Source of the DNA: a virus
Lineage: Duplodnaviria > Heunggongvirae > Uroviricota > Caudoviricetes
Virus record (IMG/VR): IMGVR_UViG_3300014204_000143
Length of the DNA: 64,000 nt
Reading direction: 5' to 3' (one strand)
This document shows positions 420 to 62,900 of the stretch, one piece after another (the stretch's first letter is position 1; each line of letters opens with the position of its first letter). Below the pieces are notes generated by a model that ran no database searches, was not told where the DNA came from, and saw nothing but the letters and a program-made list of their open reading frames with translations. The position numbers and the translations under genes were made by a program.

Positions 420-3275
420 ATGGCTACACTTTATTGGTACGGTGGTTCAGGAAATTTTAGTTCAGCATCAGGTCACTGGAGTACAAACTCTGGCAATGTT
501 CCTGCGGCTGACCACGTAGCACCAACATCAACAGATGATGTTATTTTTGATACTTCAAGTTCTGTAGCAGAAGCTGCTTATACTGTAACTATTGATGCAA
601 CTGCTAATTGTCAGAACTTTACAATGGATGGACCAAGTGCCACTGATGCCACTAAAGTAACTTGGGCTGGAAGTTCCACATTAAATATTTATGGAAATAT
701 TAATTTGAGTGGAGGTACGGCAGGAATTACTTCAACATATAGTGGTGGAATAAATATGGCCGCCACTAGTGGAACAAAAACTATTGATTTTAATTCTGTT
801 ATTCATCTAGGTCGTTTGTTGTTTGGTATATACGGTAGTGACTCCGCTACTTTTCAATTATCCAGAGATATTGAATTAGCATTTGTAGGTGGTGCTTCAT
901 CTTATTTTGGGTTAGATTATGGAGCGTTTGATGCTAATGGAAAAACGGTTACTCTTAATATCTCCTCTACGGATGGTATTAGAGGTCCAATAACATTTTA
1001 TAATTTAATTTTACTAGGGGTTGCAAGAAATGACAACAAAGTAACTTTAAATTCTAATATAACAGTTTCTAATACCCTAACAATAACTGGAGGTTCCGCT
1101 ATTAACCGTATTTTAGTGGAATCTAATACAATTGGAACTTCTAGAACGATAACTGCAGCTGCCATCTCAATCTCTAATGCCGATTTCCAAGATATTACTG
1201 GTGCTGGTGATGCAACTTGGGATATGTCTGCTATTACTGGGGGTTCTGGTAATTGTGGTGGAAACTCAATGAAAGCATTGGGTGATGCTGCCTTTACTAC
1301 CGCAGATACTTGGTACTGGCATGCTGATACTGGTAATGTTTCAGACTACACAAAATGGTATACAGAAACTAATGGTGGTGGCTCACAAATGGCTTCCACC
1401 TTAGTTCCACTACCTCAAGATACCTTAAGATTTGATGACAGTTCTTTTAATAGTGGTTCACAAACGATAACTCAGAACATGCCTCGTATTGGAAGTATTG
1501 ATTTTACAGGAGCGACTAATACACCCACATTTACAACCTCAACAGTGGCTTCAGTGTTTGGTTCTATTACCTTAATAAGTGGGATGACTTTGACGGCTTC
1601 AACTCAGGTATATACTTTTGAAGGAAGAAACAGTTATTTTTTAACAAATGCAGGAAAATCTTGGGGAAAAGCAATTATAATAAACGCCCCAAATGGTTCA
1701 TTAACATTAAAAGATGATTACAATTCTATTGCTTCAATAACTTTGACTAACGGTACTTTTAGTGCAGTAGATGGTGCTATAAATTCAAATGTTACTTTGA
1801 GTGCACTTTTATCAAATAATACTAATACTGGAAGAACACTTACAATGGGTTCTGGATTATGGACATTTTCTACAGAAGCAGTGAGTTTTGTTTTAATAAA
1901 TGCTACCAATCTTACTTTTACTTCTACTACCTCAACAATAAAACTTACAGCAGTTTTGACTGGTAATAGATTTTTTAGTGGAGGAGGATTAACTTTTGGA
2001 AACTTTTGGAATGCGACTACTGGTGCATATTCAATAATAATGTCAACTTCTGATTATTTCAACGACTTTAAAATAGACGCTGGTAGAGAAGTTAATTTTA
2101 CAAACTCAACAACAACAACTGTAAACACATTTACTGCTTTAGGAACATCTGGTTCACATATAGTAATTCATAACACTTCAGGAACAACTCACGCTACTCT
2201 TACTAAAGCAGGTGGGGGATTAATAACTGGTTGTGATTACATAGACATTCAAGAAATGACAGGGAGTCCTATTTCTACTTGGTATATAGGTTCGAATTCT
2301 ACTGACACTGGAAGCACTTGTACAAATATTTATTTAGAAAATACACCAACAACAACGTCAAGTAGTTCTAGTACATCAAGTTCAACTTCAAGTTCTACTA
2401 GCTCATCAACCTCAAGTTCAACGTCTAGCTCGACAAGTAGTTCTACAAGTTCTAGCACATCTAGTTCGACCTCAAGCAGTACATCTAGTTCAACATCAAG
2501 TAGCACTAGCTCATCGACTTCAAGTTCAACAAGTTCTTCGACTTCAAGTTCAACAAGTAGCTCGACTAGTTCTTCAACTTCAAGTTCGACTACTAGTTCT
2601 TCAACTTCGTCAAGTACGTCTAGTTCGACTTCAAGTTCTACAAGTTCTTCGACTTCAAGTTCTACGTCTAGCTCAACATCTAGTTCTACAAGTTCTTCAA
2701 CTTCGTCAAGTACGTCTAGTTCTACTTCAAGTTCTACAAGTTCTTCAACTTCAAGTTCTACGTCTAGTTCAACATCTAGTTCTACTAGCTCATCGACTTC
2801 AAGTTCTACGTCTAGTTCAACTAGTTCGACTTCAAGTTCTACTAGTTCTTCGACTTCAAGTTCTACGTCTAGCTCAACATCTAGTTCTACTTCAAGCTCT
2901 ACAAGTTCTTCAACCAGTAGTTCTACGTCTAGTTCAACTTCAAGTTCAACGTCTAGTTCGACTTCAAGCTCAACGTCTTCATCTACGAGTAGTTCTACTA
3001 GTTCATCAACTAGTTCTAGCACGTCTAGCTCAACATCTAGCTCAACTAGCTCATCAACCTCGAGTTCAACGTCTAGTTCAACTAGTTCAACATCTAGTTC
3101 GACTAGTAGTTCGACTAGTTCTTCAACGTCTAGTTCAACATCTAGCTCAACTAGTTCTTCAACTTCAAGTTCAACGTCTAGTTCGACGAGTTCTTTGCCT
3201 ATGGAATTTGGATTAACTCATCCATCTGGAAGTATAGGAATATTTACTCTTTATGGAAGCAAACCAAGATATTAA
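420..3275 (+). CDS. Putative tail fibre/adhesin. The N-terminal ~640 aa are Gly/Ser/Thr/Asn-rich and probably beta-rich; the C-terminal ~285 aa are near-perfect (STSSS)n.
   Basis: 951-aa ORF. Its composition and size fit phage fibre proteins. It is immediately followed by more structural-like genes. Confidence 0.55.
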   Translation: MATLYWYGGSGNFSSASGHWSTNSGNVPAADHVAPTSTDDVIFDTSSSVAEAAYTVTIDATANCQNFTMDGPSATDATKVTWAGSSTLNIYGNINLSGGTAGITSTYSGGINMAATSGTKTIDFNSVIHLGRLLFGIYGSDSATFQLSRDIELAFVGGASSYFGLDYGAFDANGKTVTLNISSTDGIRGPITFYNLILLGVARNDNKVTLNSNITVSNTLTITGGSAINRILVESNTIGTSRTITAAAISISNADFQDITGAGDATWDMSAITGGSGNCGGNSMKALGDAAFTTADTWYWHADTGNVSDYTKWYTETNGGGSQMASTLVPLPQDTLRFDDSSFNSGSQTITQNMPRIGSIDFTGATNTPTFTTSTVASVFGSITLISGMTLTASTQVYTFEGRNSYFLTNAGKSWGKAIIINAPNGSLTLKDDYNSIASITLTNGTFSAVDGAINSNVTLSALLSNNTNTGRTLTMGSGLWTFSTEAVSFVLINATNLTFTSTTSTIKLTAVLTGNRFFSGGGLTFGNFWNATTGAYSIIMSTSDYFNDFKIDAGREVNFTNSTTTTVNTFTALGTSGSHIVIHNTSGTTHATLTKAGGGLITGCDYIDIQEMTGSPISTWYIGSNSTDTGSTCTNIYLENTPTTTSSSSSTSSSTSSSTSSSTSSSTSSSTSSSTSSSTSSSTSSSTSSSTSSSTSSSTSSSTSSSTSSSTSSSTSSSTSSSTTSSSTSSSTSSSTSSSTSSSTSSSTSSSTSSSTSSSTSSSTSSSTSSSTSSSTSSSTSSSTSSSTSSSTSSSTSSSTSSTSSSTSSSTSSSTSSSTSSSTSSSTSSSTSSSTSSSTSSSTSSSTSSSTSSSTSSSTSSSTSSSTSSSTSSSTSSSTSSSTSSSTSSTSSSTSSSTSSSTSSSTSSSTSSSTSSSTSSSTSSLPMEFGLTHPSGSIGIFTLYGSKPRY
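2356..3195 (+). repeat. In-frame tandem repeat with a 15-nt period encoding (STSSS)n. Synonymous codons are shuffled between units.
   Basis: Direct reading: units such as agt tct acg tct agt, agc tca aca tct agt and so on. The protein repeat is perfect while the DNA repeat is degenerate. The same repeat type occurs at 1-290 and 5060-5225. Confidence 0.9.
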
Positions 3276-3276
3276 T

Positions 3277-3379
3277 AGCTAGTTTATCCCGCTGGGTTAG
3301 CATTAGTTATTTACAACTAGTTTATCCCATTGGGTTGACGTTAGTTATTTATAACTAATGTTATAATTAATAAATAAAG
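3277..3379 (+). promoter_or_regulatory. Two tandem copies of a ~38-bp element (TTTATCCC-N3-TGGGTT-N4-TTAGTTAT) followed by an extended -10 (TGTTATAAT at 3359-3367), ~20 nt upstream of ATG 3388
   Basis: Seen directly. The same element plus TGTTATAAT recurs at 11933-11991, upstream of ATG 12017. Confidence 0.45.
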
Positions 3380-3387
3380 TAAAAAAA

Positions 3388-4788
3388 ATGATAACAATTA
3401 GAGCCGACAATCTTATTCTTACAAAAAACTCTCCATATTCGTATTTGAATACCAATTATATTGCAGGTGTCACAGATATGGTGGTTGTTAATTGGATTGA
3501 TTTTAAACCAGATGACTACGTTTTAATTGGAGAATGGGGTTCAGAAAACACAGAAATTGTTCAAGTATCTTCTATAAAGGGGTCTACAAATACAATTACC
3601 CTTAAGGTTGCAAGTAAATTCTCTCATGCTGAAAGTACAAAAGTAACCATTATTAGATATAATATGGTGTTGTTTTATCACACAACAACTACCACATTTT
3701 CTACTGGAACTCACGTTAGACAAAAATCATATCTTGGAAATGATACTACTCAATTTGATATAACTAATCCAGCAGGAACAACATTTAGATATACTTGGGA
3801 CGGAACAGGAACTAATCCATTAATTGCAGACTTCGCAGTAATCGGAAATTCGGTTTATATTTCTGCTCAAAACTTTAATGCTAGCAATAATGGAACATTT
3901 GTTATAACAGGAAAAGGAACTAATTATTTTGAAGTTACTAATGCTTCTGGTGTAATTGAATCTAATAAAACAATTGGAACTGGTTCGGTTGCTATTAAAT
4001 CAGATAGACTTGCAATTGCCTCTGATAGTCAATTTACTGATATTTTTGATGATACTTATACAACTGGATATGGTTGGTATTTATTTTATAACTCTACCAC
4101 TGATACTGTAACTCAACAAAGTAATTATATCCCCTATAGTGGATTTGAAGAAGACTCAACCAAGAGTGTTCTCGACAGATTCTTTGATATTCTCTCTAAC
4201 TCTGAACAGAAACTTATTACAACTGATATGGCCTACTCGTGGATGAATGAGGGTTATTCTAAAATATATAATGCTCTCGGACTAGTTAATAAAGAATATA
4301 ACTCACCAAGTTCAGTTACAATCACAACTACTTCTGGAACAGCTGAGTATCTTATTTCTACTTATATGACAGATTTTGCAGATATTATTTCTGTTTATTG
4401 TGGCACTGAAGATAACGAAGTTGGAAATATATCACTAGACAAAATAGATGGTTGGAATTCCGAAACCGACAACACTGTTAAATATTTTATTCGAGGGAAT
4501 TATATTGGTTTTTCTCCAGTTCCAGCGGCGGCAACTGCTTATACAATTCGCTATGCCACGAAGTCAGCAACGGTCTCAAGCTATATTGATGAATTAAATT
4601 TACCAGATGGAAGTTTCTACTGCGTGACTGACTGGATGCTTTTTAGAGCCAGTATGAAGGCTAGTAGTATTGATGGAGCAATGCACAAAAACTTATTTGA
4701 TGAAGCTGTTAAGGTAATGCAATTAGTTTCTCACAAAAGAGACGCTAATCTAGATAGTTGGGGAATTGCTAATAACGCTAACGTTTAA
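3388..4788 (+). CDS. Structural (tail-fibre/baseplate-like) protein carrying one copy of the 'FDITNPAGTTFRYTWDGTG' repeat domain
   Basis: 466-aa ORF. Residues ~120-200 match the repeat domain found six times in ORF 6762..11708. Preceded by the promoter-like element. Confidence 0.5.
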   Translation: MITIRADNLILTKNSPYSYLNTNYIAGVTDMVVVNWIDFKPDDYVLIGEWGSENTEIVQVSSIKGSTNTITLKVASKFSHAESTKVTIIRYNMVLFYHTTTTTFSTGTHVRQKSYLGNDTTQFDITNPAGTTFRYTWDGTGTNPLIADFAVIGNSVYISAQNFNASNNGTFVITGKGTNYFEVTNASGVIESNKTIGTGSVAIKSDRLAIASDSQFTDIFDDTYTTGYGWYLFYNSTTDTVTQQSNYIPYSGFEEDSTKSVLDRFFDILSNSEQKLITTDMAYSWMNEGYSKIYNALGLVNKEYNSPSSVTITTTSGTAEYLISTYMTDFADIISVYCGTEDNEVGNISLDKIDGWNSETDNTVKYFIRGNYIGFSPVPAAATAYTIRYATKSATVSSYIDELNLPDGSFYCVTDWMLFRASMKASSIDGAMHKNLFDEAVKVMQLVSHKRDANLDSWGIANNANV

Positions 4789-31858: not shown

Positions 31859-31906
31859 AGTTTAACATACTAAAAACACCTTGTCAAGTAGTAAACTGTG
31901 GACAAC
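31859..31906 (-). promoter_or_regulatory. Sigma70-like promoter on the minus strand (TTGACA-17 nt-TAAACT) with an upstream TTGTCCACA (DnaA-box-like) site, driving ORF 31145..31831
   Basis: Reverse complement of 31859-31887 reads TTGACAAGGTGTTTTTAGTATGTTAAACT. The element is near-identical to 47029-47076 and, inverted, to 47451-47497. Confidence 0.5.
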
Positions 31907-37568: not shown

Positions 37569-39408
<1,840 letters not shown>

Positions 39409-45340: not shown

Positions 45341-45429
45341 TGGAGGTCTTGGTTGGGAGTCGAACCCAAATACCTTGTATGTGGCTGTTCCTAACCACTA
45401 CGCTCTATCCAAATTGAGCTACCAAGACC
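45341..45429 (-). tRNA. tRNA gene (isotype unresolved, possibly His-like with a G-1 nucleotide). The anticodon region is unusually long.
   Basis: Reverse complement reads G-GTCTTGG TA GCTC AATTTGGATA GAGC ... TTGGG TTCGACT CCCAA CCAAGAC C. There is a perfect 7-bp acceptor stem, a canonical D-arm and a TPsiC arm (GGGTTCGACTCCC). The segment between the D-arm and T-arm is ~9 nt longer than standard. Confidence 0.6.
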
Positions 45430-45825: not shown

Positions 45826-46521
45826 TTACATACTAATAAATCTACCTAATTTATTTCTTTTTGAATTATATTTTTTAGAAAACACCTTATCTAAGTCTAA
45901 ACATTTTAGTATTCTATATCTAGCTGTTTCATACGGTATATTATATTTTTTTACCCAATACATAAGAGGTTTAGTTATTCCTTTATATGTTATTAGATTA
46001 TTGCATCTTTTATTACTTGCCTGTTCGCTCATTGTTACCCATTGACAATTTTTTTTAGAATAATTACCACTATTATCAATTCTATCTATAGACGTTTTCC
46101 TATCTCCATATTTTTTGGAATGCTTTGTATAACTTTCATACATATCATTTTTAAATTCTTCAAAGTTTTTCCACTCACATTTTATATTCCGTCCACCATA
46201 ATTTTTATAAGATATTGAATTTTTATTACAGGTTCTTGATTTTATAGCATACCATATATTATAAAATCTAGTCTTAGACATATTATGTTTTTTCCATTTG
46301 TATTTTAAACATCCACAACTTTTAGTATTTCCATTTATAAGATATGCTGTCTTTACTATTGCTTTATTTCCACAATCACACTTACAAACCCAATACGCAT
46401 TTCTGTTTTTTATGTGTGAAAATTTTATTGCTGTTAATTTATTAAATTTTTTTCCAGTAATATTTTTAATATTTTTATTCATATTCTTGTTCTTTTTTAT
46501 CTCTAAACAATATCCCCTCAC
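45826..46521 (-). CDS. Cys-rich protein with an HNH_3-like homing-endonuclease signature
   Basis: CKCDCGN...CGC at the N-terminus; ...SIDRIDNSGNYSKKNCQWVTMSEQASNK resembles the H-N-N motif of phage HNH_3 endonucleases. Confidence 0.4.
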   Translation of the reverse strand: MRGYCLEIKKNKNMNKNIKNITGKKFNKLTAIKFSHIKNRNAYWVCKCDCGNKAIVKTAYLINGNTKSCGCLKYKWKKHNMSKTRFYNIWYAIKSRTCNKNSISYKNYGGRNIKCEWKNFEEFKNDMYESYTKHSKKYGDRKTSIDRIDNSGNYSKKNCQWVTMSEQASNKRCNNLITYKGITKPLMYWVKKYNIPYETARYRILKCLDLDKVFSKKYNSKRNKLGRFISM

Positions 46522-47028: not shown

Positions 47029-47076
47029 AGTTTAACATACTAAAAACACCTTGTCAAGTGGTAATCTGTGGATAAC
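47029..47076 (-). promoter_or_regulatory. Sigma70-like promoter on the minus strand (TTGACA-17-TAAACT) with an exact DnaA-box 9-mer (TTATCCACA, seen as ctgtggataa on plus) 10 nt upstream of the -35
   Basis: Reverse complement: GTTATCCACAGATTACCACTTGACAAGGTGTTTTTAGTATGTTAAACT. Drives 46626..47003. Confidence 0.55.
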
Positions 47077-47136: not shown

Positions 47137-47418
47137 ATGGAACAAAATCTTTACAGCACTAGAGACTTAATTGAGGCCGCCTCCTTAATCGCTCTAAAAT
47201 TTCCCATGGTAAATATCGACTACCAGTCAGAAGACACAAAACTTGTCGGTTACTTCGTTTTTGAAGATAGTCCAGAATTACAAGAAATGGTTATCAAATC
47301 TTTATCAAAGCAATTAGCCTTTGAGCCGAGAGAATTTAATAGTATTATTAAAAGTCTCAAAGCTCAATTAGCCAATACAAAAAAAAGTCCGAGTAGTAAA
47401 TATTCGGGGAGCTACTAA
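47137..47418 (+). CDS. Hypothetical protein (first plus-strand gene after the divergence point)
   Basis: 93-aa ORF. Confidence 0.35.
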   Translation: MEQNLYSTRDLIEAASLIALKFPMVNIDYQSEDTKLVGYFVFEDSPELQEMVIKSLSKQLAFEPREFNSIIKSLKAQLANTKKSPSSKYSGSY

Positions 47419-47450
47419 GAAACTCTTTAGTTTTTTTTATTACGTTTGAC

Positions 47451-47497
47451 TTATCCACAGGACATATCTTGACAAGGTGTTTTTGTTGTAGTATAAT
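47451..47497 (+). promoter_or_regulatory. Consensus sigma70 promoter (TTGACA 47469-47474, 17-nt spacer, TATAAT 47492-47497) with an exact DnaA box TTATCCACA (47451-47459) upstream. It drives the tRNA-like locus.
   Basis: Seen directly: ttatccacag gacatatc TTGACA aggtgtttttgttgtag TATAAT. Confidence 0.6.
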
Positions 47498-47643
47498 GGT
47501 AGTGATTTCTTCGAAATCAAAAAAACTATTTCAGTAATCATCCAGTTCTCATACTTCTGGATGGTTATAGTGGGTTAGAAAAGTAGCAATTCGCAAGCCC
47601 CATAAGCTTGAGACACAGGTGCAAATCCTGTACCCGCCACCAA

Positions 47644-47736
47644 GCCACTTAGTAGTTTAATGGTAGAAAAACCAGAGGAAAAACACCCAGCGTAAGCTCG
47701 TGGAGATTGTTGGTTCGAGTCCAACTAGTGGCCCCA
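47644..47736 (+). tRNA. tRNA-like gene (~93 nt incl. encoded CCA). It has a canonical T-arm and acceptor stem, with a long D/anticodon/variable region (type II tRNA, or one carrying an insert).
   Basis: 5' GCCACTT pairs with 3' TAGTGGC (6/7). T-arm GTTGG TTCGAGT CCAAC is canonical, then discriminator C and CCA. The D-loop region AGTTTAATGGTAG contains the conserved GG. The anticodon stem could not be folded confidently by eye. Confidence 0.45.
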
Positions 47737-47834
47737 ATAATTAGGCATAAAAAACATGAAAAAGTTTGTAAAAAGTTCATTGGGTTGTTTTTATATAAGT
47801 TGCGTCATGTCTTCTTAAATGCCTAAACAGCCCA

Positions 47835-48143
47835 GTGATTTTTTTATATAACAAAATAATTATGAATCTAATAGAACACCGCCGACAAATTTATGACACT
47901 ATTGACAACATGTTTCAGGTGACAATGACTCCTGAACAGCTTAAGATTATTTCTAATTGCCTTAAACGTTACGCTATCCACTATTCGGAATCGGCTATCA
48001 AAACGATTCACGAACTGACTGAAGCCTTAGCGTCTAGAAAAGAGTCAAAAAAACAACCAAAACAAGTAAAAAAAGAAATTAAAAGAGTTCCTGTGATGGA
48101 AAAAACACCAGTTTATCCAAGAATAAGGTGTGCTAGATATTAG
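47835..48143 (+). CDS. Hypothetical protein
   Basis: 102-aa ORF (the true start may be the internal MNLIEH). Confidence 0.3.
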   Translation: MIFLYNKIIMNLIEHRRQIYDTIDNMFQVTMTPEQLKIISNCLKRYAIHYSESAIKTIHELTEALASRKESKKQPKQVKKEIKRVPVMEKTPVYPRIRCARY

Positions 48144-48269: not shown

Positions 48270-48767
48270 ATGTCGTTAATAGAAGTTAAGACCCTAAATA
48301 AGTATATAATACCAAGTTTTTCTGGAGAAAATAAATATATAATTTATTTTTTAATTAGTAATGAAACCATTGTTTATGTAGGTCAAACAGAGTGTGGTTT
48401 AAGAAGAATTGGCGGACATTTTGGGTTTAAAGATTTTGATAGTTTTACATTTACTCCAGCACCATCAGATAAAAACGAAAGATTAAAATTAGAGGAACAA
48501 TATATTTTAAAATACCAACCAAAGTATAATAAAATAACTGAAAGAAAAACATTAATTTCAAAAGGATATATATCAATTGATTGTGCAATTAAAAAATATT
48601 ATAATAATCTATCTAATAAATTAAAATATAACGATTTCAAGAAATGGTTAATTGGTTTAGAAGTTAGCCTTGACTGTATAAAATTAAAATCTCGTGACGG
48701 GTGGGGCAAAATAGACATCTTTTTTATAAAATCAGAGTTAGAAAAAGAAATTAAAAAATTAATCTAA
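48270..48767 (+). CDS. GIY-YIG nuclease (homing-endonuclease-like)
   Basis: KYIIYFLISNETIVYVGQTECGLRRIGGH...ERLKLEEQYILKYQPKYN carries GIY...YIG, R, E and N in the canonical spacing. Confidence 0.6.
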   Translation: MSLIEVKTLNKYIIPSFSGENKYIIYFLISNETIVYVGQTECGLRRIGGHFGFKDFDSFTFTPAPSDKNERLKLEEQYILKYQPKYNKITERKTLISKGYISIDCAIKKYYNNLSNKLKYNDFKKWLIGLEVSLDCIKLKSRDGWGKIDIFFIKSELEKEIKKLI

Positions 48768-50403: not shown

Positions 50404-50979
50404 ATGAAAAAAGATAAATTGGAGATTGTCGCTCCACATTTCAAGAAGTCACAAGAAGTTACTAAAGAGAATCTCACGTTAATTTCTGATGTTATGTTTG
50501 CCATGGTTGATATATGCCAGAAGCTAGAAGAAGACAAAATAGTTTCTGATGCTTATGCTTTAGCCCATTGTCAAGTCGAATCAGAAACTCCGTTGAGATT
50601 TTTTGTTTTTAATATTACCAATCCAGAAATTTCAATGCTAATCGGCACCGATATTTCTCCTGTCATTATTAATCCATGTATTGTCAATCACACTAAAGTT
50701 TTTGTAGAAAAAGCAGAAGCGTGTTTGAGTGCGGCTGGGTATGGTGGAGCAATTGTTAAGAGGTTTAATAAAGTGACGGTAGAATTTAATGAACTTCAAA
50801 CCGACGATGATAAAACTTTCTATATGGGTGAAAGACGAACGATGAATCTAAGTGGAAAACTTTCTCAAATTTTTCAACACGAGATAGACCACTTCTTAGG
50901 TAGATACATATTTGAAGACGATATTATGGAAAGTATTGCCGAGATAATGGAAAAAGATAAAAAAAAGAAAGAGAAATAA
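50404..50979 (+). CDS. def: Peptide deformylase
   Basis: EACLSAAGYGG (EGCLS motif II) and QHEIDHFLG (HEXXH motif III). Confidence 0.75.
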   Translation: MKKDKLEIVAPHFKKSQEVTKENLTLISDVMFAMVDICQKLEEDKIVSDAYALAHCQVESETPLRFFVFNITNPEISMLIGTDISPVIINPCIVNHTKVFVEKAEACLSAAGYGGAIVKRFNKVTVEFNELQTDDDKTFYMGERRTMNLSGKLSQIFQHEIDHFLGRYIFEDDIMESIAEIMEKDKKKKEK

Positions 50980-51127: not shown

Positions 51128-52132
51128 ATGCGAAAATTAGTAACAGTTCAAAAGGTATTAGAAAAAAAATCAATAGAAGGAGCCGATAGAATTGAGGCAG
51201 TAAGGATTAATGGTTGGTGGGTAGTGACACAAAAAGACCAATTTAAAGTTGGCGAGTATTGTATTTATTTTGAGGTGGATTCGTTTTTGCCAATTAAACC
51301 AGAATTTGAATTTCTTTTAAATGGTAAGTCGCCTAAAAAAATGCTATACAAAGGAAAAGAAGTTGAGGGTATTAGGTTGAAAACAATTAAGTTAAAAGGA
51401 CAGCTGAGCCAGGGCTTAGTAATGCCAATTACCGAAACGATGATAATAAAAGAAATTGATGAAGATTTGTCAGATTATTTTGGAGTTATATTATACGAAC
51501 AACCAGTCCCACCACAACTTCAAGGATATGCTAAGGGCAATTTTCCAGGATTTATTCCAAAGACTGATGAAGAAAGAATACAAAATATGACGGAAATTTT
51601 TAATAATTATGTCGCCACAGAAAAGATTGATGGCACTTCTGCAACATATTATAAAAAAGACGGGGTATTTGGGGTTTGTAGTAGAAATTTAGAATTAGTT
51701 AAAGGGGAAAGTATTTATTGGAGAATCGCAGAAAAATATAATTTAGAAAATATAATTCCAGACGGGTTATGTTTTCAGGGGGAAATAATAGGAGAGGGTA
51801 TTCAAGGAAATCCTTTAAAGCAAACTGGTCAAGATATTTATTTTTTCAATGTCTATAATATTGAAAGCAATACTTATTTAGATTTTGATGAATTTCTAAA
51901 TATTTGTGAAAAATTAAATCTTAAAACTGTTCCAATTATAAATGACAATTTTTCTTTGCCAAAAAATGTTGATGATATGTTATGGTTTGCAGAAGGGTTT
52001 GCAGAAGGAAAAAGTTTATTGAATCCAAACGTAGAACGAGAAGGCGTTGTCGTCAGAAGTAAAAACAAAATAAATGGCGAAAGGATTTCTTTTAAAGCCA
52101 TTTCAAATACTTATTTATTAAATGAAAAATAA
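51128..52132 (+). CDS. ATP-dependent RNA ligase (Rnl2/DRB0094-like nucleotidyltransferase)
   Basis: Ligase motif I ATEKIDGTSATYY (KxDG), ...FQGEIIGEGIQGN and motif IV-like EGVVVRS. Confidence 0.6.
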   Translation: MRKLVTVQKVLEKKSIEGADRIEAVRINGWWVVTQKDQFKVGEYCIYFEVDSFLPIKPEFEFLLNGKSPKKMLYKGKEVEGIRLKTIKLKGQLSQGLVMPITETMIIKEIDEDLSDYFGVILYEQPVPPQLQGYAKGNFPGFIPKTDEERIQNMTEIFNNYVATEKIDGTSATYYKKDGVFGVCSRNLELVKGESIYWRIAEKYNLENIIPDGLCFQGEIIGEGIQGNPLKQTGQDIYFFNVYNIESNTYLDFDEFLNICEKLNLKTVPIINDNFSLPKNVDDMLWFAEGFAEGKSLLNPNVEREGVVVRSKNKINGERISFKAISNTYLLNEK

Positions 52133-61520: not shown

Positions 61521-62900
61521 TTATCCTTTAATCACACCCAAAGGGCTTAATTCTACTAATATCTCAACTAAATCTTTTTGATTTTCCATCACGTCTTTGA
61601 TATTTTTATATGAACTTGTTGCCTCGTCTAAATCATCAGCAGTTCTAATTCCGTGGACAATTCCTTGGTCTTCTAATATTTTAATTTCATTTTCTAAGTT
61701 AAGGCTTTTTATTGCTTGTCCTCGTCCCATACATCTACCAGCTCCGTGCGAGCAAGAATTAAAACTTTCTGGATTACCTTTTCCTTTTACAATATAAGAA
61801 TTAGAACCCATTGACCCAGGGATTATTCCGATTGTGTCTTCTGTGGCAAGTGTCGCTCCTTTCCTATGAACCATTACATTTGTTCCAAAATGATTTTCCA
61901 TTCGAGCGTAATTGTGAGCGATGTTTATCATTGGCTCTGTTTTAAATCTTTTTGTTCCTTTATATACTAAATTTTTATACTCTTCTACACTTTTTTCCCC
62001 TCTTTTTTTTAGTTCGTCTAGAACTTTTTTGTCCGTAAATTCCCAATTACATCTTGCACATTTTGGATATTGACTGATAGCAAGTAACTTGTAACCACAT
62101 TTAGGACAACCGTCTCTATATATTTTTTCAAGTCTATCGCATTCATCAATAACTGAATTAAACTGTTTATTAAAGATGTTAATAATTCTCTCCATCATCA
62201 ACTTTCTATTAGCCAAAGCAAACTCAACACAATAATTCATTTCTCTAATATATGCTTTACCCTCTTCGCTATCAATTGGTAAAAAAGCTAAGTCAAATTC
62301 TTTAGGAACTTCACTGTGCCATTTTTCGTTTAATTCTTTAGCTATTTTATTATAATGGTCAGCTACTTGTTTTCCTAAATTTCTTGAACCACTATGAATC
62401 ATAATCCAAATATGTCCGTCAGAACCTTTTTGAATTTCGATGAAGTGATTGCCACCGCCAAGAGTTCCAATAGATAAACAAGCATTGTTAAACTCTTGAT
62501 TACAGATTTTTAAATCATCTGACAATTCTGGCATTAATCTGCTTTGATAAGACTCGTATTCTTTATGTTTATTGAACCCAACAGGAATAGCCCTTCTAAT
62601 TTCACCAATTATTTTTTTAAGGGTATCTTTGTCTAATTCAGTTAAAGAAGTCTTAACTGCACAAAGCCCGCACCCAGCGTCTGACCCGACCATTGACGGA
62701 CAGACTACACCTTTTAATGCAACCACTCCTCCAATAGGCATTCCAAATTTAGAGCAATGACAATCTAGCATTATTGCTACGTGGTGAAATGCAAATGGTA
62801 ATTTTACTAGATTATCAATTTGTGTCATAGCACTTTCTTCTATTTCTGGACACCAACTAAAAACTGGGATTTTGTTTTTTTCTTTTTTAAATTTTTTCAT
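61521..62900 (-). CDS. rtcB: RtcB-family RNA ligase (3'-phosphate/5'-OH) with an inserted CxxC zinc ribbon
   Basis: CPSMVGSDAGCG, GGNHFIEIQ, HSGSRNLG and SCSHGAGRCMGRGQA are RtcB core motifs. CPKCGYKLLAISQYPKCARC is an insert. Confidence 0.8.
   Translation of the reverse strand: MKKFKKEKNKIPVFSWCPEIEESAMTQIDNLVKLPFAFHHVAIMLDCHCSKFGMPIGGVVALKGVVCPSMVGSDAGCGLCAVKTSLTELDKDTLKKIIGEIRRAIPVGFNKHKEYESYQSRLMPELSDDLKICNQEFNNACLSIGTLGGGNHFIEIQKGSDGHIWIMIHSGSRNLGKQVADHYNKIAKELNEKWHSEVPKEFDLAFLPIDSEEGKAYIREMNYCVEFALANRKLMMERIINIFNKQFNSVIDECDRLEKIYRDGCPKCGYKLLAISQYPKCARCNWEFTDKKVLDELKKRGEKSVEEYKNLVYKGTKRFKTEPMINIAHNYARMENHFGTNVMVHRKGATLATEDTIGIIPGSMGSNSYIVKGKGNPESFNSCSHGAGRCMGRGQAIKSLNLENEIKILEDQGIVHGIRTADDLDEATSSYKNIKDVMENQKDLVEILVELSPLGVIKG

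Follow-up and report, generated by a model that had tools for sequence, protein, structure and literature searches.

An anticodon-less tRNA derivative directly downstream of an initiator-type tRNA-Met gene in a large uncultured phage, a possible RNase P cleavage module

In the Caudoviricetes record IMGVR_UViG_3300014204_000143 of IMG/VR, of which a stretch of 64,000 nt was analyzed (the window in the following), a promoter with a perfect sigma-70 consensus is followed by two CCA-ended RNA genes that are separated by a single base. The first is an initiator-type tRNA-Met(CAU). The second, the 93-nt element, is certainly derived from a tRNA, but it is devoid of an anticodon arm and cannot decode. 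We propose, tentatively and with less than even confidence, that this non-decoding tRNA derivative persists as a cleavage module for RNase P, through which the tRNA-Met obtains its free 3′ end. A first-pass annotation of the window had recognized a structured pair of CCA-ended RNAs, one of them non-standard, which holds true, but it had assigned the roles the wrong way round: the upstream element is the genuine tRNA, and the downstream element is aberrant. The locus is thus a tRNA operon of a phage in which an initiator-type tRNA is accompanied by a tRNA derivative devoid of an anticodon arm, and the known kinds nearest to it are phage tRNA and pseudo-tRNA genes as well as irregular tRNAs. Its features are:

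47451–47497, plus strand: promoter module, consisting of TTATCCACAG, 7 nt, and then CTTGACAAGGTGTTTTT, which carries the −35 hexamer
47469–47474, plus strand: −35 hexamer TTGACA, with a 17-nt spacer to the −10 hexamer
47492–47497, plus strand: −10 hexamer TATAAT
47503–47568, plus strand: leader with two stable hairpins (47503–47519 and 47534–47568)
47569–47642, plus strand: tRNA-Met(CAU), 74 nt (ARAGORN; Rfam tRNA)
47643, plus strand: spacer, a single A that separates the tRNA-Met CCA from the start of the 93-nt element
47644–47736, plus strand: 93-nt element, tRNA-derived RNA gene without an anticodon arm
47764–47852, plus strand: terminator-like stem-loop with the core stem 47777–47787/47828–47838

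The 93-nt element is derived from a tRNA

The T-arm, the acceptor stem, and the encoded CCA that had been reported for the 93 nt from 47644 to 47736 were all found base for base. The element can be divided into the following parts:

47644–47652, plus strand: 5′ strand of the acceptor stem (if this stem is read as 8 bp, U47650 is bulged)
47653–47654, plus strand: U8 and A9
47655–47658 (GUUU) and 47669–47672 (AAAC), plus strand: D-arm, with the 10-nt loop AAUGGUAGAA
47673–47708, plus strand: non-tRNA center
47709/47710–47725/47724, plus strand: T-arm, GUUGG-UUCGAGU-CCAAC
47725/47726–47732, plus strand: 3′ strand of the acceptor stem
47733 and 47734–47736, plus strand: discriminator C and CCA

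The acceptor strands read GCCACU(U) and (U)AGUGGC, and the 3:70 pair is C-G. The core bases of a tRNA have all been kept (U8, A14, A15, G18, G19, A21, U48, G53, U54, U55, C56, A58, and C61), five of them in the D-loop AAUGGUAGAA (A14, A15, G18, G19, and A21). Two extra bases, AG (47651–47652), lie between a 7-bp acceptor stem and U8 and can pair with C47725 and U47726. This pairing would yield an 8-bp acceptor stem with a bulged U47650 and a 4-bp T stem, that is, an 8/4 organization with a 12-bp acceptor branch. The window was also scanned for upper halves of tRNAs, defined by a 5-bp T stem, a TTCRANY loop, at least six of seven acceptor pairs, and NCCA. The 93-nt element was the sole site in the window, and 300 Markov shuffles of the window contained none. 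This result is beyond chance, and therefore the 93-nt element is certainly tRNA-derived.

The anticodon arm is missing

On the Rfam tRNA model, the 93-nt element reached 22 bits, compared to a threshold of 29 (E = 0.039 even in a search of 501 nt), and the alignment left 28 bases unaligned at the expected site of the anticodon arm. No canonical anticodon arm (5-bp stem, 7-nt loop, U33, and a purine at 37) could be formed in the central 36–39 nt. The center is purine-rich and A-rich and has a GC content of 49%, versus about 29–30% in the surrounding genome. An imperfect direct repeat within the element consists of GAAAAAC-CAG (47667–47676) and GAAAAACACCCAG (47678–47690). The folding energy of the center (47670–47708, 39 nt) was −5.1 kcal/mol versus a shuffle mean of −4.5 kcal/mol, and 37% of the shuffles were as stable. 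Two weak pairings compete with one another, namely that of CAGAG (47673–47677) with CUC(G)UG (47697–47702), where a 5-bp stem from which one G bulges closes a loop of 19 nt, and that of a small AGC-GUAA-GCU hairpin of the GNRA type.

Could the 93-nt element nevertheless be a working decoder of a non-canonical kind? Its anticodon loop might have 8 nt (the 'aaaa' call), as part of a type II-like or 8/4 tRNA used for quadruplet or frameshift reading, or the element might become a normal tRNA after excision of RNA and religation by the RtcB or the RNA ligase of the phage. The length of the element suits a type II tRNA, the phage encodes RNA ligases, long-arm tRNAs exist in phage arrays (tRNA-Ile(UAU) of contigs L005–L011), and ARAGORN, which makes no call at default settings or at -ps95, calls the element at -ps90 and -ps80. 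At -ps80 it draws a 'tRNA-?' cloverleaf with a long variable arm, in which the anticodon stem is mismatched at two of five positions and the 8-nt loop GAAAAACA has neither U33 nor a purine at 37. However, at this setting ARAGORN makes 27 calls in the real window and 22–40 calls in shuffled windows, so that the call carries little weight. Furthermore, the center folds like random sequence, and no excision yields a canonical tRNA above the shuffled rate. A decoding role is thus very improbable.

The latter result was obtained by a deletion scan, in which every segment of 3–32 nt of the central region was removed (795 variants). ARAGORN could call three of the variants, with three different anticodons, while shuffled centers gave a median of about two callable variants (range 0–177). 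The intron mode of ARAGORN (-i) added nothing new at the 93-nt element. The first-pass suggestion of an intron or a single insert hiding a normal tRNA is therefore not supported. The type II tRNA that had been suggested as well has the fitting length, but there is no canonical anticodon arm beside a long variable arm. Possible variable-arm hairpins (AGC-GUAA-GCU or CUC-GUG-GAG) are weak, and when one of them is formed an A-rich, unpaired stretch of 14–17 nt is all that remains for the anticodon arm.

A third early suggestion, a tmRNA-like RNA or the tRNA-like domain of a split tmRNA, is effectively refuted. The resemblance, an acceptor stem and a T-arm without an anticodon arm, is superficial. 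ARAGORN reported no tmRNA at default settings, and its sole tmRNA call at -ps80 spans the promoter and the tRNA-Met and has an unidentified tag. No Rfam tmRNA family matched at E values up to 10, neither a resume codon nor a tag reading frame was found, and the 3:70 pair is C-G, not G·U. Of the readings proposed at first, only that of a putative tRNA mimic, a non-decoding tRNA-like RNA, has survived.

As a whole, the 93-nt element folds weakly into a tRNA-like shape. The 8/4 fold with a bulged U47650 has −13.0 kcal/mol and a 7/5 fold with a U·U mismatch has −15.6 kcal/mol, whereas the minimum-energy fold (−23 kcal/mol, z = −1.24 for the whole element) is 9/3-like and has a broken T-arm. With respect to an 8/4 or 9/3 acceptor branch, 8/4 is possible and 7/5 is slightly better, as judged for a single sequence by energies alone. 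An 8-bp acceptor stem with one bulge and a 4-bp T stem, if formed, would resemble those of the irregular 8/4 tRNAs and allo-tRNAs (Mukai et al., PMC5389517), and also like some irregular tRNAs the element is phage-encoded, putatively co-transcribed with another tRNA, and possibly unused in translation. In allo-tRNAs, a tetraloop caps a long D-stem, the variable arm is long, and the anticodon loop is a real one of 7 nt (PMC5389517). The 93-nt element differs from them: it has a 4-bp D-stem, a 7–10-nt D-loop with GG, and no anticodon loop.

The upstream gene encodes an initiator-type tRNA-Met

The upstream element scored 50.5 bits on the Rfam tRNA model RF00005 (gathering score 29) and was called tRNA-Met(CAU) by ARAGORN at default settings. 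Its cloverleaf is canonical, the anticodon stem having 5 bp and the anticodon loop 7 nt, though C33 replaces U33 in this loop (CCCAUAA). Its 3′ end, CCUGU ACCCGCC A CCA, is as first described. The 5′ acceptor strand, in contrast, had been reported as missing; it is AGUGGGU (47569–47575), which pairs with ACCCGCC at six of seven positions. A mismatch of A1 with C72 and a wobble pair of U3 with G70 explain why it had been overlooked. The first-pass annotation had also held that calls of ordinary tRNAs would make the locus mundane. ARAGORN and Infernal with the Rfam model indeed call an ordinary tRNA at the upstream element, but not at the 93-nt element.

An unpaired 1:72 position and an A11:U24 pair are hallmarks of bacterial initiator tRNA-fMet. 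The phage tRNA has both, and because of A1·C72 and A11:U24 it is classed as initiator-type. It also shares with bacterial tRNA-fMet the CAU anticodon and the discriminator A73, followed by an encoded CCA, and with E. coli tRNA-fMet the purine-rich xxCAAAU type of T-loop. It differs in several respects. The pairs 29–31/39–41 are A29-U41, G30-C40, and C31-G39 instead of the three G-C pairs of initiators, position 33 is C, the T-loop UGCAAAU has G55 in place of U55, and the D-loop AGUAGCA is devoid of GG. The tRNA-Met would give the phage an initiator-like tRNA of its own, which may be formylated and used at the ribosomal P site; a peptide deformylase is encoded by the phage as well.

The tRNA-Met belongs to a widespread family of phage tRNA-Met genes with initiator features. 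The IMG/VR collection was searched with the pattern CCCATAA-N12-18-GGTGCAAATCC, which returned 23 stretches, most of them tRNA genes within phage tRNA arrays. An alignment of 14 distinct phage sequences (the tRNA-Met and 13 others) revealed compensatory changes at 17 of the 20 cloverleaf pairs. Position 1:72 is mismatched in 12 of the 14 sequences and is unpaired in the consensus, and 11:24 is A-U in ten of them, while 29:41 and 31:39 vary. The CCCAUAA anticodon loop with C33, the UGCAAAU T-loop with G55, and the D-loop without GG are family traits. The unusual elbow, with neither G18-G19 nor U55, may point to a different D/T interaction. Members occur in GC-rich as well as in AT-rich phages (L014–L035 from IMG/VR, e.g., L016:344–373, L023:6524–6554, and L032:8117–8190), and one GenBank phage record labels the stretch that matches the tRNA-Met as such. 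Altered anticodon loops of phage tRNAs have been proposed to allow escape from host anticodon nucleases, e.g., VapC, which cleaves initiator tRNA (PMC10264068); by analogy, the anticodon loop of the tRNA-Met would fit this proposal. An initiator-type tRNA-Met family with C33 and G55 may merit a separate study.

The two genes appear to form their own transcription unit

The TTGACA-17-TATAAT sequence at 47469–47497, which had already been described as a perfect promoter ahead of the locus, is the sole 12/12 match to the sigma-70 consensus in the window, compared to a chance expectation of 0.06. Judged from the position of the −10 hexamer, the transcript would start near 47504. The leader that follows has a minimum free energy of −19.1 kcal/mol (z = −5.66), which was equaled by none of 200 shuffles, and its second hairpin abuts the 5′ end of the tRNA-Met. 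Downstream of the 93-nt element, the stem-loop at 47764–47852 has a minimum free energy of −29.6 kcal/mol (z = −4.51; none of 200 shuffles was as stable), and its core stem is followed by a run of seven U (47839–47845). A simple terminator scan missed this stem-loop because its loop is long. It resembles an intrinsic terminator and would, according to the predicted fold, end the two-gene RNA unit before the next open reading frame (ORF; ATG at 47862). Based on the leader hairpins and the terminator-like hairpin, the tRNA-Met and the 93-nt element thus appear to form their own transcription unit, which is probably transcribed from this promoter. In this organization the locus is a small stable-RNA operon composed of promoter, structured leader, tRNA-Met, one base, the 93-nt tRNA derivative, and the terminator-like hairpin.

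The promoter is part of a module, TT(A/G)TCCACAG, 7 nt, and CTTGACAAGGTGTTTTT, that is present in three copies (47451–47484 on the plus strand, and 47042–47075 and 31872–31888 on the minus strand, the last being the module core). The first part of the copy at the locus, TTATCCACAG, is identical to the DnaA-box consensus, and two of the copies match this consensus, TTATCCACA, exactly. Both minus-strand copies have an extended −10 element (TGTTAAACT) in place of TATAAT. Two copies diverge around an ORF encoding 93 aa at 47137–47418. The −10 region (47488–47502, GTAGTATAATGGTAG) and the D-arm of the 93-nt element (47652–47666, GTAGTTTAATGGTAG) match at 14 of 15 bases, which is probably a coincidence.

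A direct repeat is present at the junction of the two genes, GCCACCA at the 3′ end of the tRNA-Met (47636–47642) and GCCACUU in the 5′ acceptor strand of the 93-nt element (47644–47650). The 3′ acceptor strand of the 93-nt element (47726–47732) can pair with either copy at six of seven positions. In a precursor, the alternative helix with 47636–47642 would bury the CCA end of the tRNA-Met.

A second element of the same build

A further tRNA-like gene was found in the window:

45341–45429, minus strand: 89-nt tRNA-like gene with a CCA end, reported by ARAGORN as 'tRNA-Pro(AGG)' using a mismatched stem

This 89-nt element lies between two small minus-strand ORFs. Its acceptor stem has 8 bp (GGUCUUGG/CCAAGACC), its D-arm is canonical with a 10-nt loop, and its T-arm is UUGGG-UUCGACU-CCCAA. 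In place of the anticodon arm it has an anticodon-like arm with a 9-bp stem, a bulged A, and a 6-nt loop. The element reached 38 bits on the Rfam tRNA model in a local search and was missed by the run on the whole window. Its minimum free energy is −32.5 kcal/mol (z = −3.53). The 93-nt element (in its 8/4 reading) and the 89-nt element share an 8-bp acceptor stem and a 10-nt D-loop. The loop is oversized in both, the variable region is short, and CCA is encoded. In both of them, and thus in two sequences only, there is also a 2 + 3-bp stem interrupted by one bulged purine in its 3′ strand.

Another tRNA-like element, which stands alone in a viral contig of 66 kb (L012:5655–5746), is built like these two without resembling them in sequence. 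Its acceptor, D-, and T-arms are normal, an 8-bp bulged stem with a 15-nt loop takes the place of the anticodon arm, and no CCA is encoded.

Homologues of the 93-nt element were not found

Searches of GenBank phages, IMG/VR, JGI metagenomes, and GTDB genomes yielded no homologue of the 93-nt element. With blastn against 50,697 phage records, only the tRNA-Met part of the locus matched. An exact 21-mer of the element had no match in IMG/VR. A pattern of D-arm, gap, and T-loop had eight matches there, seven long tRNA-Ile(UAU) genes and the unrelated aberrant element of contig L012. A stricter pattern had two matches in JGI metagenomes, both unrelated, and a pattern of T-arm and acceptor stem had two matches in 185,579 species genomes, both by chance inside coding sequence. 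A pattern for the 89-nt element had no match in IMG/VR.

Gene order offers a hint at its origin. In contigs L019, L045, and L046, tRNA-Met is followed by tRNA-Thr(UGU) after 1–4 nt, with spacers of 1 nt in L019 and L046. The 93-nt element holds the array position of tRNA-Thr and has the pairs G1-C72 and C2-G71 that are typical of tRNA-Thr, without further similarity. As the likeness consists of the position and two pairs, descent from tRNA-Thr is no more than plausible.

Cleavage module or remnant

RNase P recognizes the acceptor/T minihelix together with RCCA, and some polycistronic tRNA operons of E. coli are separated by RNase P alone. The 93-nt element has the features of an RNase P substrate, namely the acceptor/T minihelix, a G at +1, the encoded CCA, and a spacer of 1 nt. 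What has been kept in it are the parts read by RNase P, by the 3′ trimming enzymes, by the CCA-adding enzyme, and by proteins that bind tRNAs independently of the anticodon. Since the upper half with NCCA is the part recognized by RNase P and starts one base after the CCA of the tRNA-Met, a cleavage module is the most economical mechanism. The 93-nt element would be a former tRNA of which only the upper half (acceptor helix, D/T elbow, and NCCA end) was retained. A cut by RNase P at 47643/47644 would detach the tRNA-Met from a structured 3′ tail of about 200 nt, and the 1-nt trailer left on the tRNA-Met would be trimmed by an exonuclease. Translation would have no use for the released 93-mer, and the rest of the old tRNA would have been free to decay. 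Both the cleavage by RNase P and the role in cis-processing are deduced from the arrangement of the genes.

An analogous case is the tRNA-like mascRNA, which sets the 3′ end of MALAT1 through cleavage by RNase P and the anticodon arm of which is likewise reduced. As in mascRNA/MALAT1 and in the tRNA operons that are processed by RNase P only, a tRNA-shaped upper half directly follows another RNA; for the 93-nt element the cleavage itself is putative. To our knowledge, an RNase P module with a degenerate partner has not been demonstrated in phage tRNA operons. If the proposal is correct, the 93-nt element would be a bacterial-virus counterpart of mascRNA/MALAT1, in which a dead tRNA gene is reused as a processing signal.

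Several observations weigh against this proposal. The tRNA-like fold is 7–10 kcal/mol worse than the competitor that breaks the T-arm, and with such a weak tRNA-like fold (z = −1.24) RNase P may see no tRNA shape at all. For many tRNAs the cut in the 3′ trailer is made by RNase E, so that a module is not strictly needed. The 89-nt element has the same odd build and follows no tRNA, which hints at a common trans-acting role. In addition, the 8-bp acceptor stems and the center with 49% GC are unlike what simple decay would predict, and the lack of homologues and the sparse similarity to tRNA-Thr (genomic position, G1-C72, and C2-G71) apply here as well.

The same data have to be read under a second explanation, according to which the 93-nt element is a plain pseudogene, the dead tRNA of a collapsing array that is carried in the tRNA-Met transcript and has no role. 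The lack of calls by ARAGORN at default settings and at the Rfam threshold, the missing anticodon arm, the weak tRNA-like fold, and the absence of a homologue from any collection searched all agree with it, and the internal imperfect direct repeat suggests slippage. The comparison with other phages also agrees with it: two distant relatives identified by their RNA ligase have 15 and 20 canonical tRNAs within 21 kb, all in one locus each, whereas the phage studied here has three tRNA-type genes across 74 kb (the window and 10 kb beyond its start; no further tRNA was found in these 10 kb), indicating that its array has shrunk, which suits the cleavage module as well. The region is also flanked by genes for homing endonucleases:

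45826–46521, minus strand: HNH homing endonuclease gene
48270–48767, plus strand: GIY-YIG-like homing endonuclease gene

These flanking genes are consistent with frequent rearrangement of the tRNA region. However, a decaying gene should hardly have an anticodon arm that is wholly gone while the core bases, the T-arm, eight acceptor pairs, and the CCA are intact. As no single deletion restores a tRNA, several events must all have hit one arm. The GC content of the center (49%) has not relaxed toward the genomic value of about 30%, and a second element in the same genome has the same pattern. Part of the contrast between the halves is due to ascertainment, as the 93-nt element was first found via its T-arm and CCA. 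On balance, we regard a plain pseudogene as somewhat unlikely, yet as an explanation to be taken seriously. If the element is just a remnant, the locus would be an ordinary phage tRNA operon of practical value only: default tRNA finders call one gene and miss its tRNA-shaped neighbor, and an initiator-type 1:72 mismatch can conceal an acceptor stem from a human reader.

A role in trans

Under a third explanation, which extends to the 89-nt element, the two RNAs are trans-acting, non-decoding, CCA-ended L-shaped tRNA mimics for proteins that read only the acceptor end and the elbow. Candidate partners are toxins or defense enzymes of the host that act at the acceptor end of tRNAs, with the RNAs as substrate or decoy, and a synthetase that does not depend on the anticodon, such as a protein of the phage itself:

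33308–34216, minus strand: AlaRS-like protein, 302 aa (Pfam PF01411, E = 7e-21)

This protein is a homologue of the catalytic core of class II alanyl-tRNA synthetase (AlaRS). Its best matches among solved structures are AlaRS, and the structure alignment covers the motif regions and extends to where the tRNA-recognition domain begins. The protein is far shorter than any AlaRS known to us, viral mini-AlaRS included. Homologues with 54% identity are encoded on three IMG/VR contigs, one of 205 kb.

The build common to the 93-nt and the 89-nt elements, which is unusual, speaks for mimics, and it is in line with such a role that the phage encodes the AlaRS-core homologue, RtcB, an RNA ligase, and a peptide deformylase. 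The phage T4 RNAs C and D are comparable in origin, though longer than the 93-nt element. They are small stable RNAs of unknown role from the tRNA gene region of T4 (PMC3014915), and bacteria and phages are known to have irregular 8/4 tRNAs that accept amino acids without serving in translation (PMC5389517). However, neither of the two elements has a G3·U70 pair, which AlaRS enzymes, viral mini-AlaRS included, require (PMC10036535). The three contigs with AlaRS-like homologues lack synteny with this phage, neither a tRNA nor a tRNA-like RNA is present within 10 kb of these homologues, homologues of neither RNA were found, and the tRNA-like fold of the 93-nt element is weak. Such trans-acting mimics are therefore unlikely, and it is more doubtful still that the two RNAs are the first members of a class of trans-acting phage tRNA mimics, characterized by a CCA end, an 8-bp acceptor stem, and loss of the anticodon arm. 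In the latter case the mimics would be part of a set for RNA repair and takeover of translation, together with RtcB, the RNA ligase, the initiator-like tRNA, and the peptide deformylase. If the two RNAs do act in trans, the phage tRNAs that serve as countermeasures against tRNA-targeting defenses (PMC10264068) would be joined by RNA decoys or by non-ribosomal aminoacyl carriers.

The Y RNA-like YrlA is another non-decoding mimic of the D/T elbow and acceptor region of tRNAs, and like the 93-nt element it occurs in phages with RNA-repair genes. It differs in that it ends in a Ro-binding stem rather than in an acceptor stem. At the locus, the YrlA model had no match in 47400–47900 at E values up to 10, and no Ro60 (TROVE) gene is adjacent; tblastn with the TROVE, PNKP, and RlaP proteins of contigs L045 and L046 had no match in the window. 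Contig L045 itself, a distantly related 99-kb phage contig of the same ENA project series, has a Ro60 (TROVE) gene beside a YrlA match (L045:2138–2237 and 2510–3910; the YrlA match is sub-threshold with 34 bits), and genes for PNKP, RlaP, RNA ligase, and Fic and an array of 15 tRNAs are in the vicinity.

The single-stranded center of the 93-nt element could in principle pair with a target; a search for an antisense target in the window yielded only matches of up to 11 nt (E of about 0.4).

The phage genome

The window has about 31% GC and is part of a 92,733-bp metagenomic contig (ENA ERZ27247350 k141_1632479). The phage is thus large (at least 92.7 kb), AT-rich, and uncultured. Judged by its genes, it is a large tailed phage, with large structural ORFs, SbcCD-like nuclease genes, a DnaB-like helicase, a primase, and nucleotide-sugar enzymes. 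Further genes mentioned above or used for comparisons are:

37804–39405, minus strand: GroEL
50404–50979: peptide deformylase
51128–52132: RNA ligase of the DRB0094 type
61521–62900, minus strand: RtcB homologue, 459 aa

A megablast search with 16 kb revealed no close relative among GenBank phages. Other assemblies hold only near-identical contigs of the phage (99.95–100% identical), so that there is no population variation to exploit. The nearest phages by RNA ligase (58–65% identity) also have the RtcB, Band_7, and GroEL modules, but their gene order differs. Among the neighbors of the tRNA region, a 379-aa protein has only one domain in common with other phage proteins, and a 165-aa protein is a mobile GIY-YIG-like protein. 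With the HNH gene on one side and the GIY-YIG gene on the other, the tRNA region is like the tRNA clusters of other large phages.

The RtcB homologue (459 aa) aligns with the RtcB of a related phage (392 aa, L044) in two blocks and partly matches NCBIfam models for intein-containing RtcB. Together, the two-block alignment and the partial match suggest an insertion of about 67 aa.

Lastly, the phage tRNA arrays retrieved in the searches include tRNA-Ile(UAU) genes of about 90–95 nt with a long extra arm, although isoleucine tRNAs are not expected to carry long arms. These genes are:

L005:6045–6138, tRNA-Ile(UAU)
L006:8040–8131, tRNA-Ile(UAU)
L007:6958–7052, tRNA-Ile(UAU)
L008:10581–10675, tRNA-Ile(UAU)
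L009:2086–2175, tRNA-Ile(UAU)
L010:3313–3407, tRNA-Ile(UAU)
L011:6426–6519, tRNA-Ile(UAU)

In several of them, the extra arm folds into a short hairpin, the stems of which covary while the loop is conserved as CAGAUUA or CAGAUAA.

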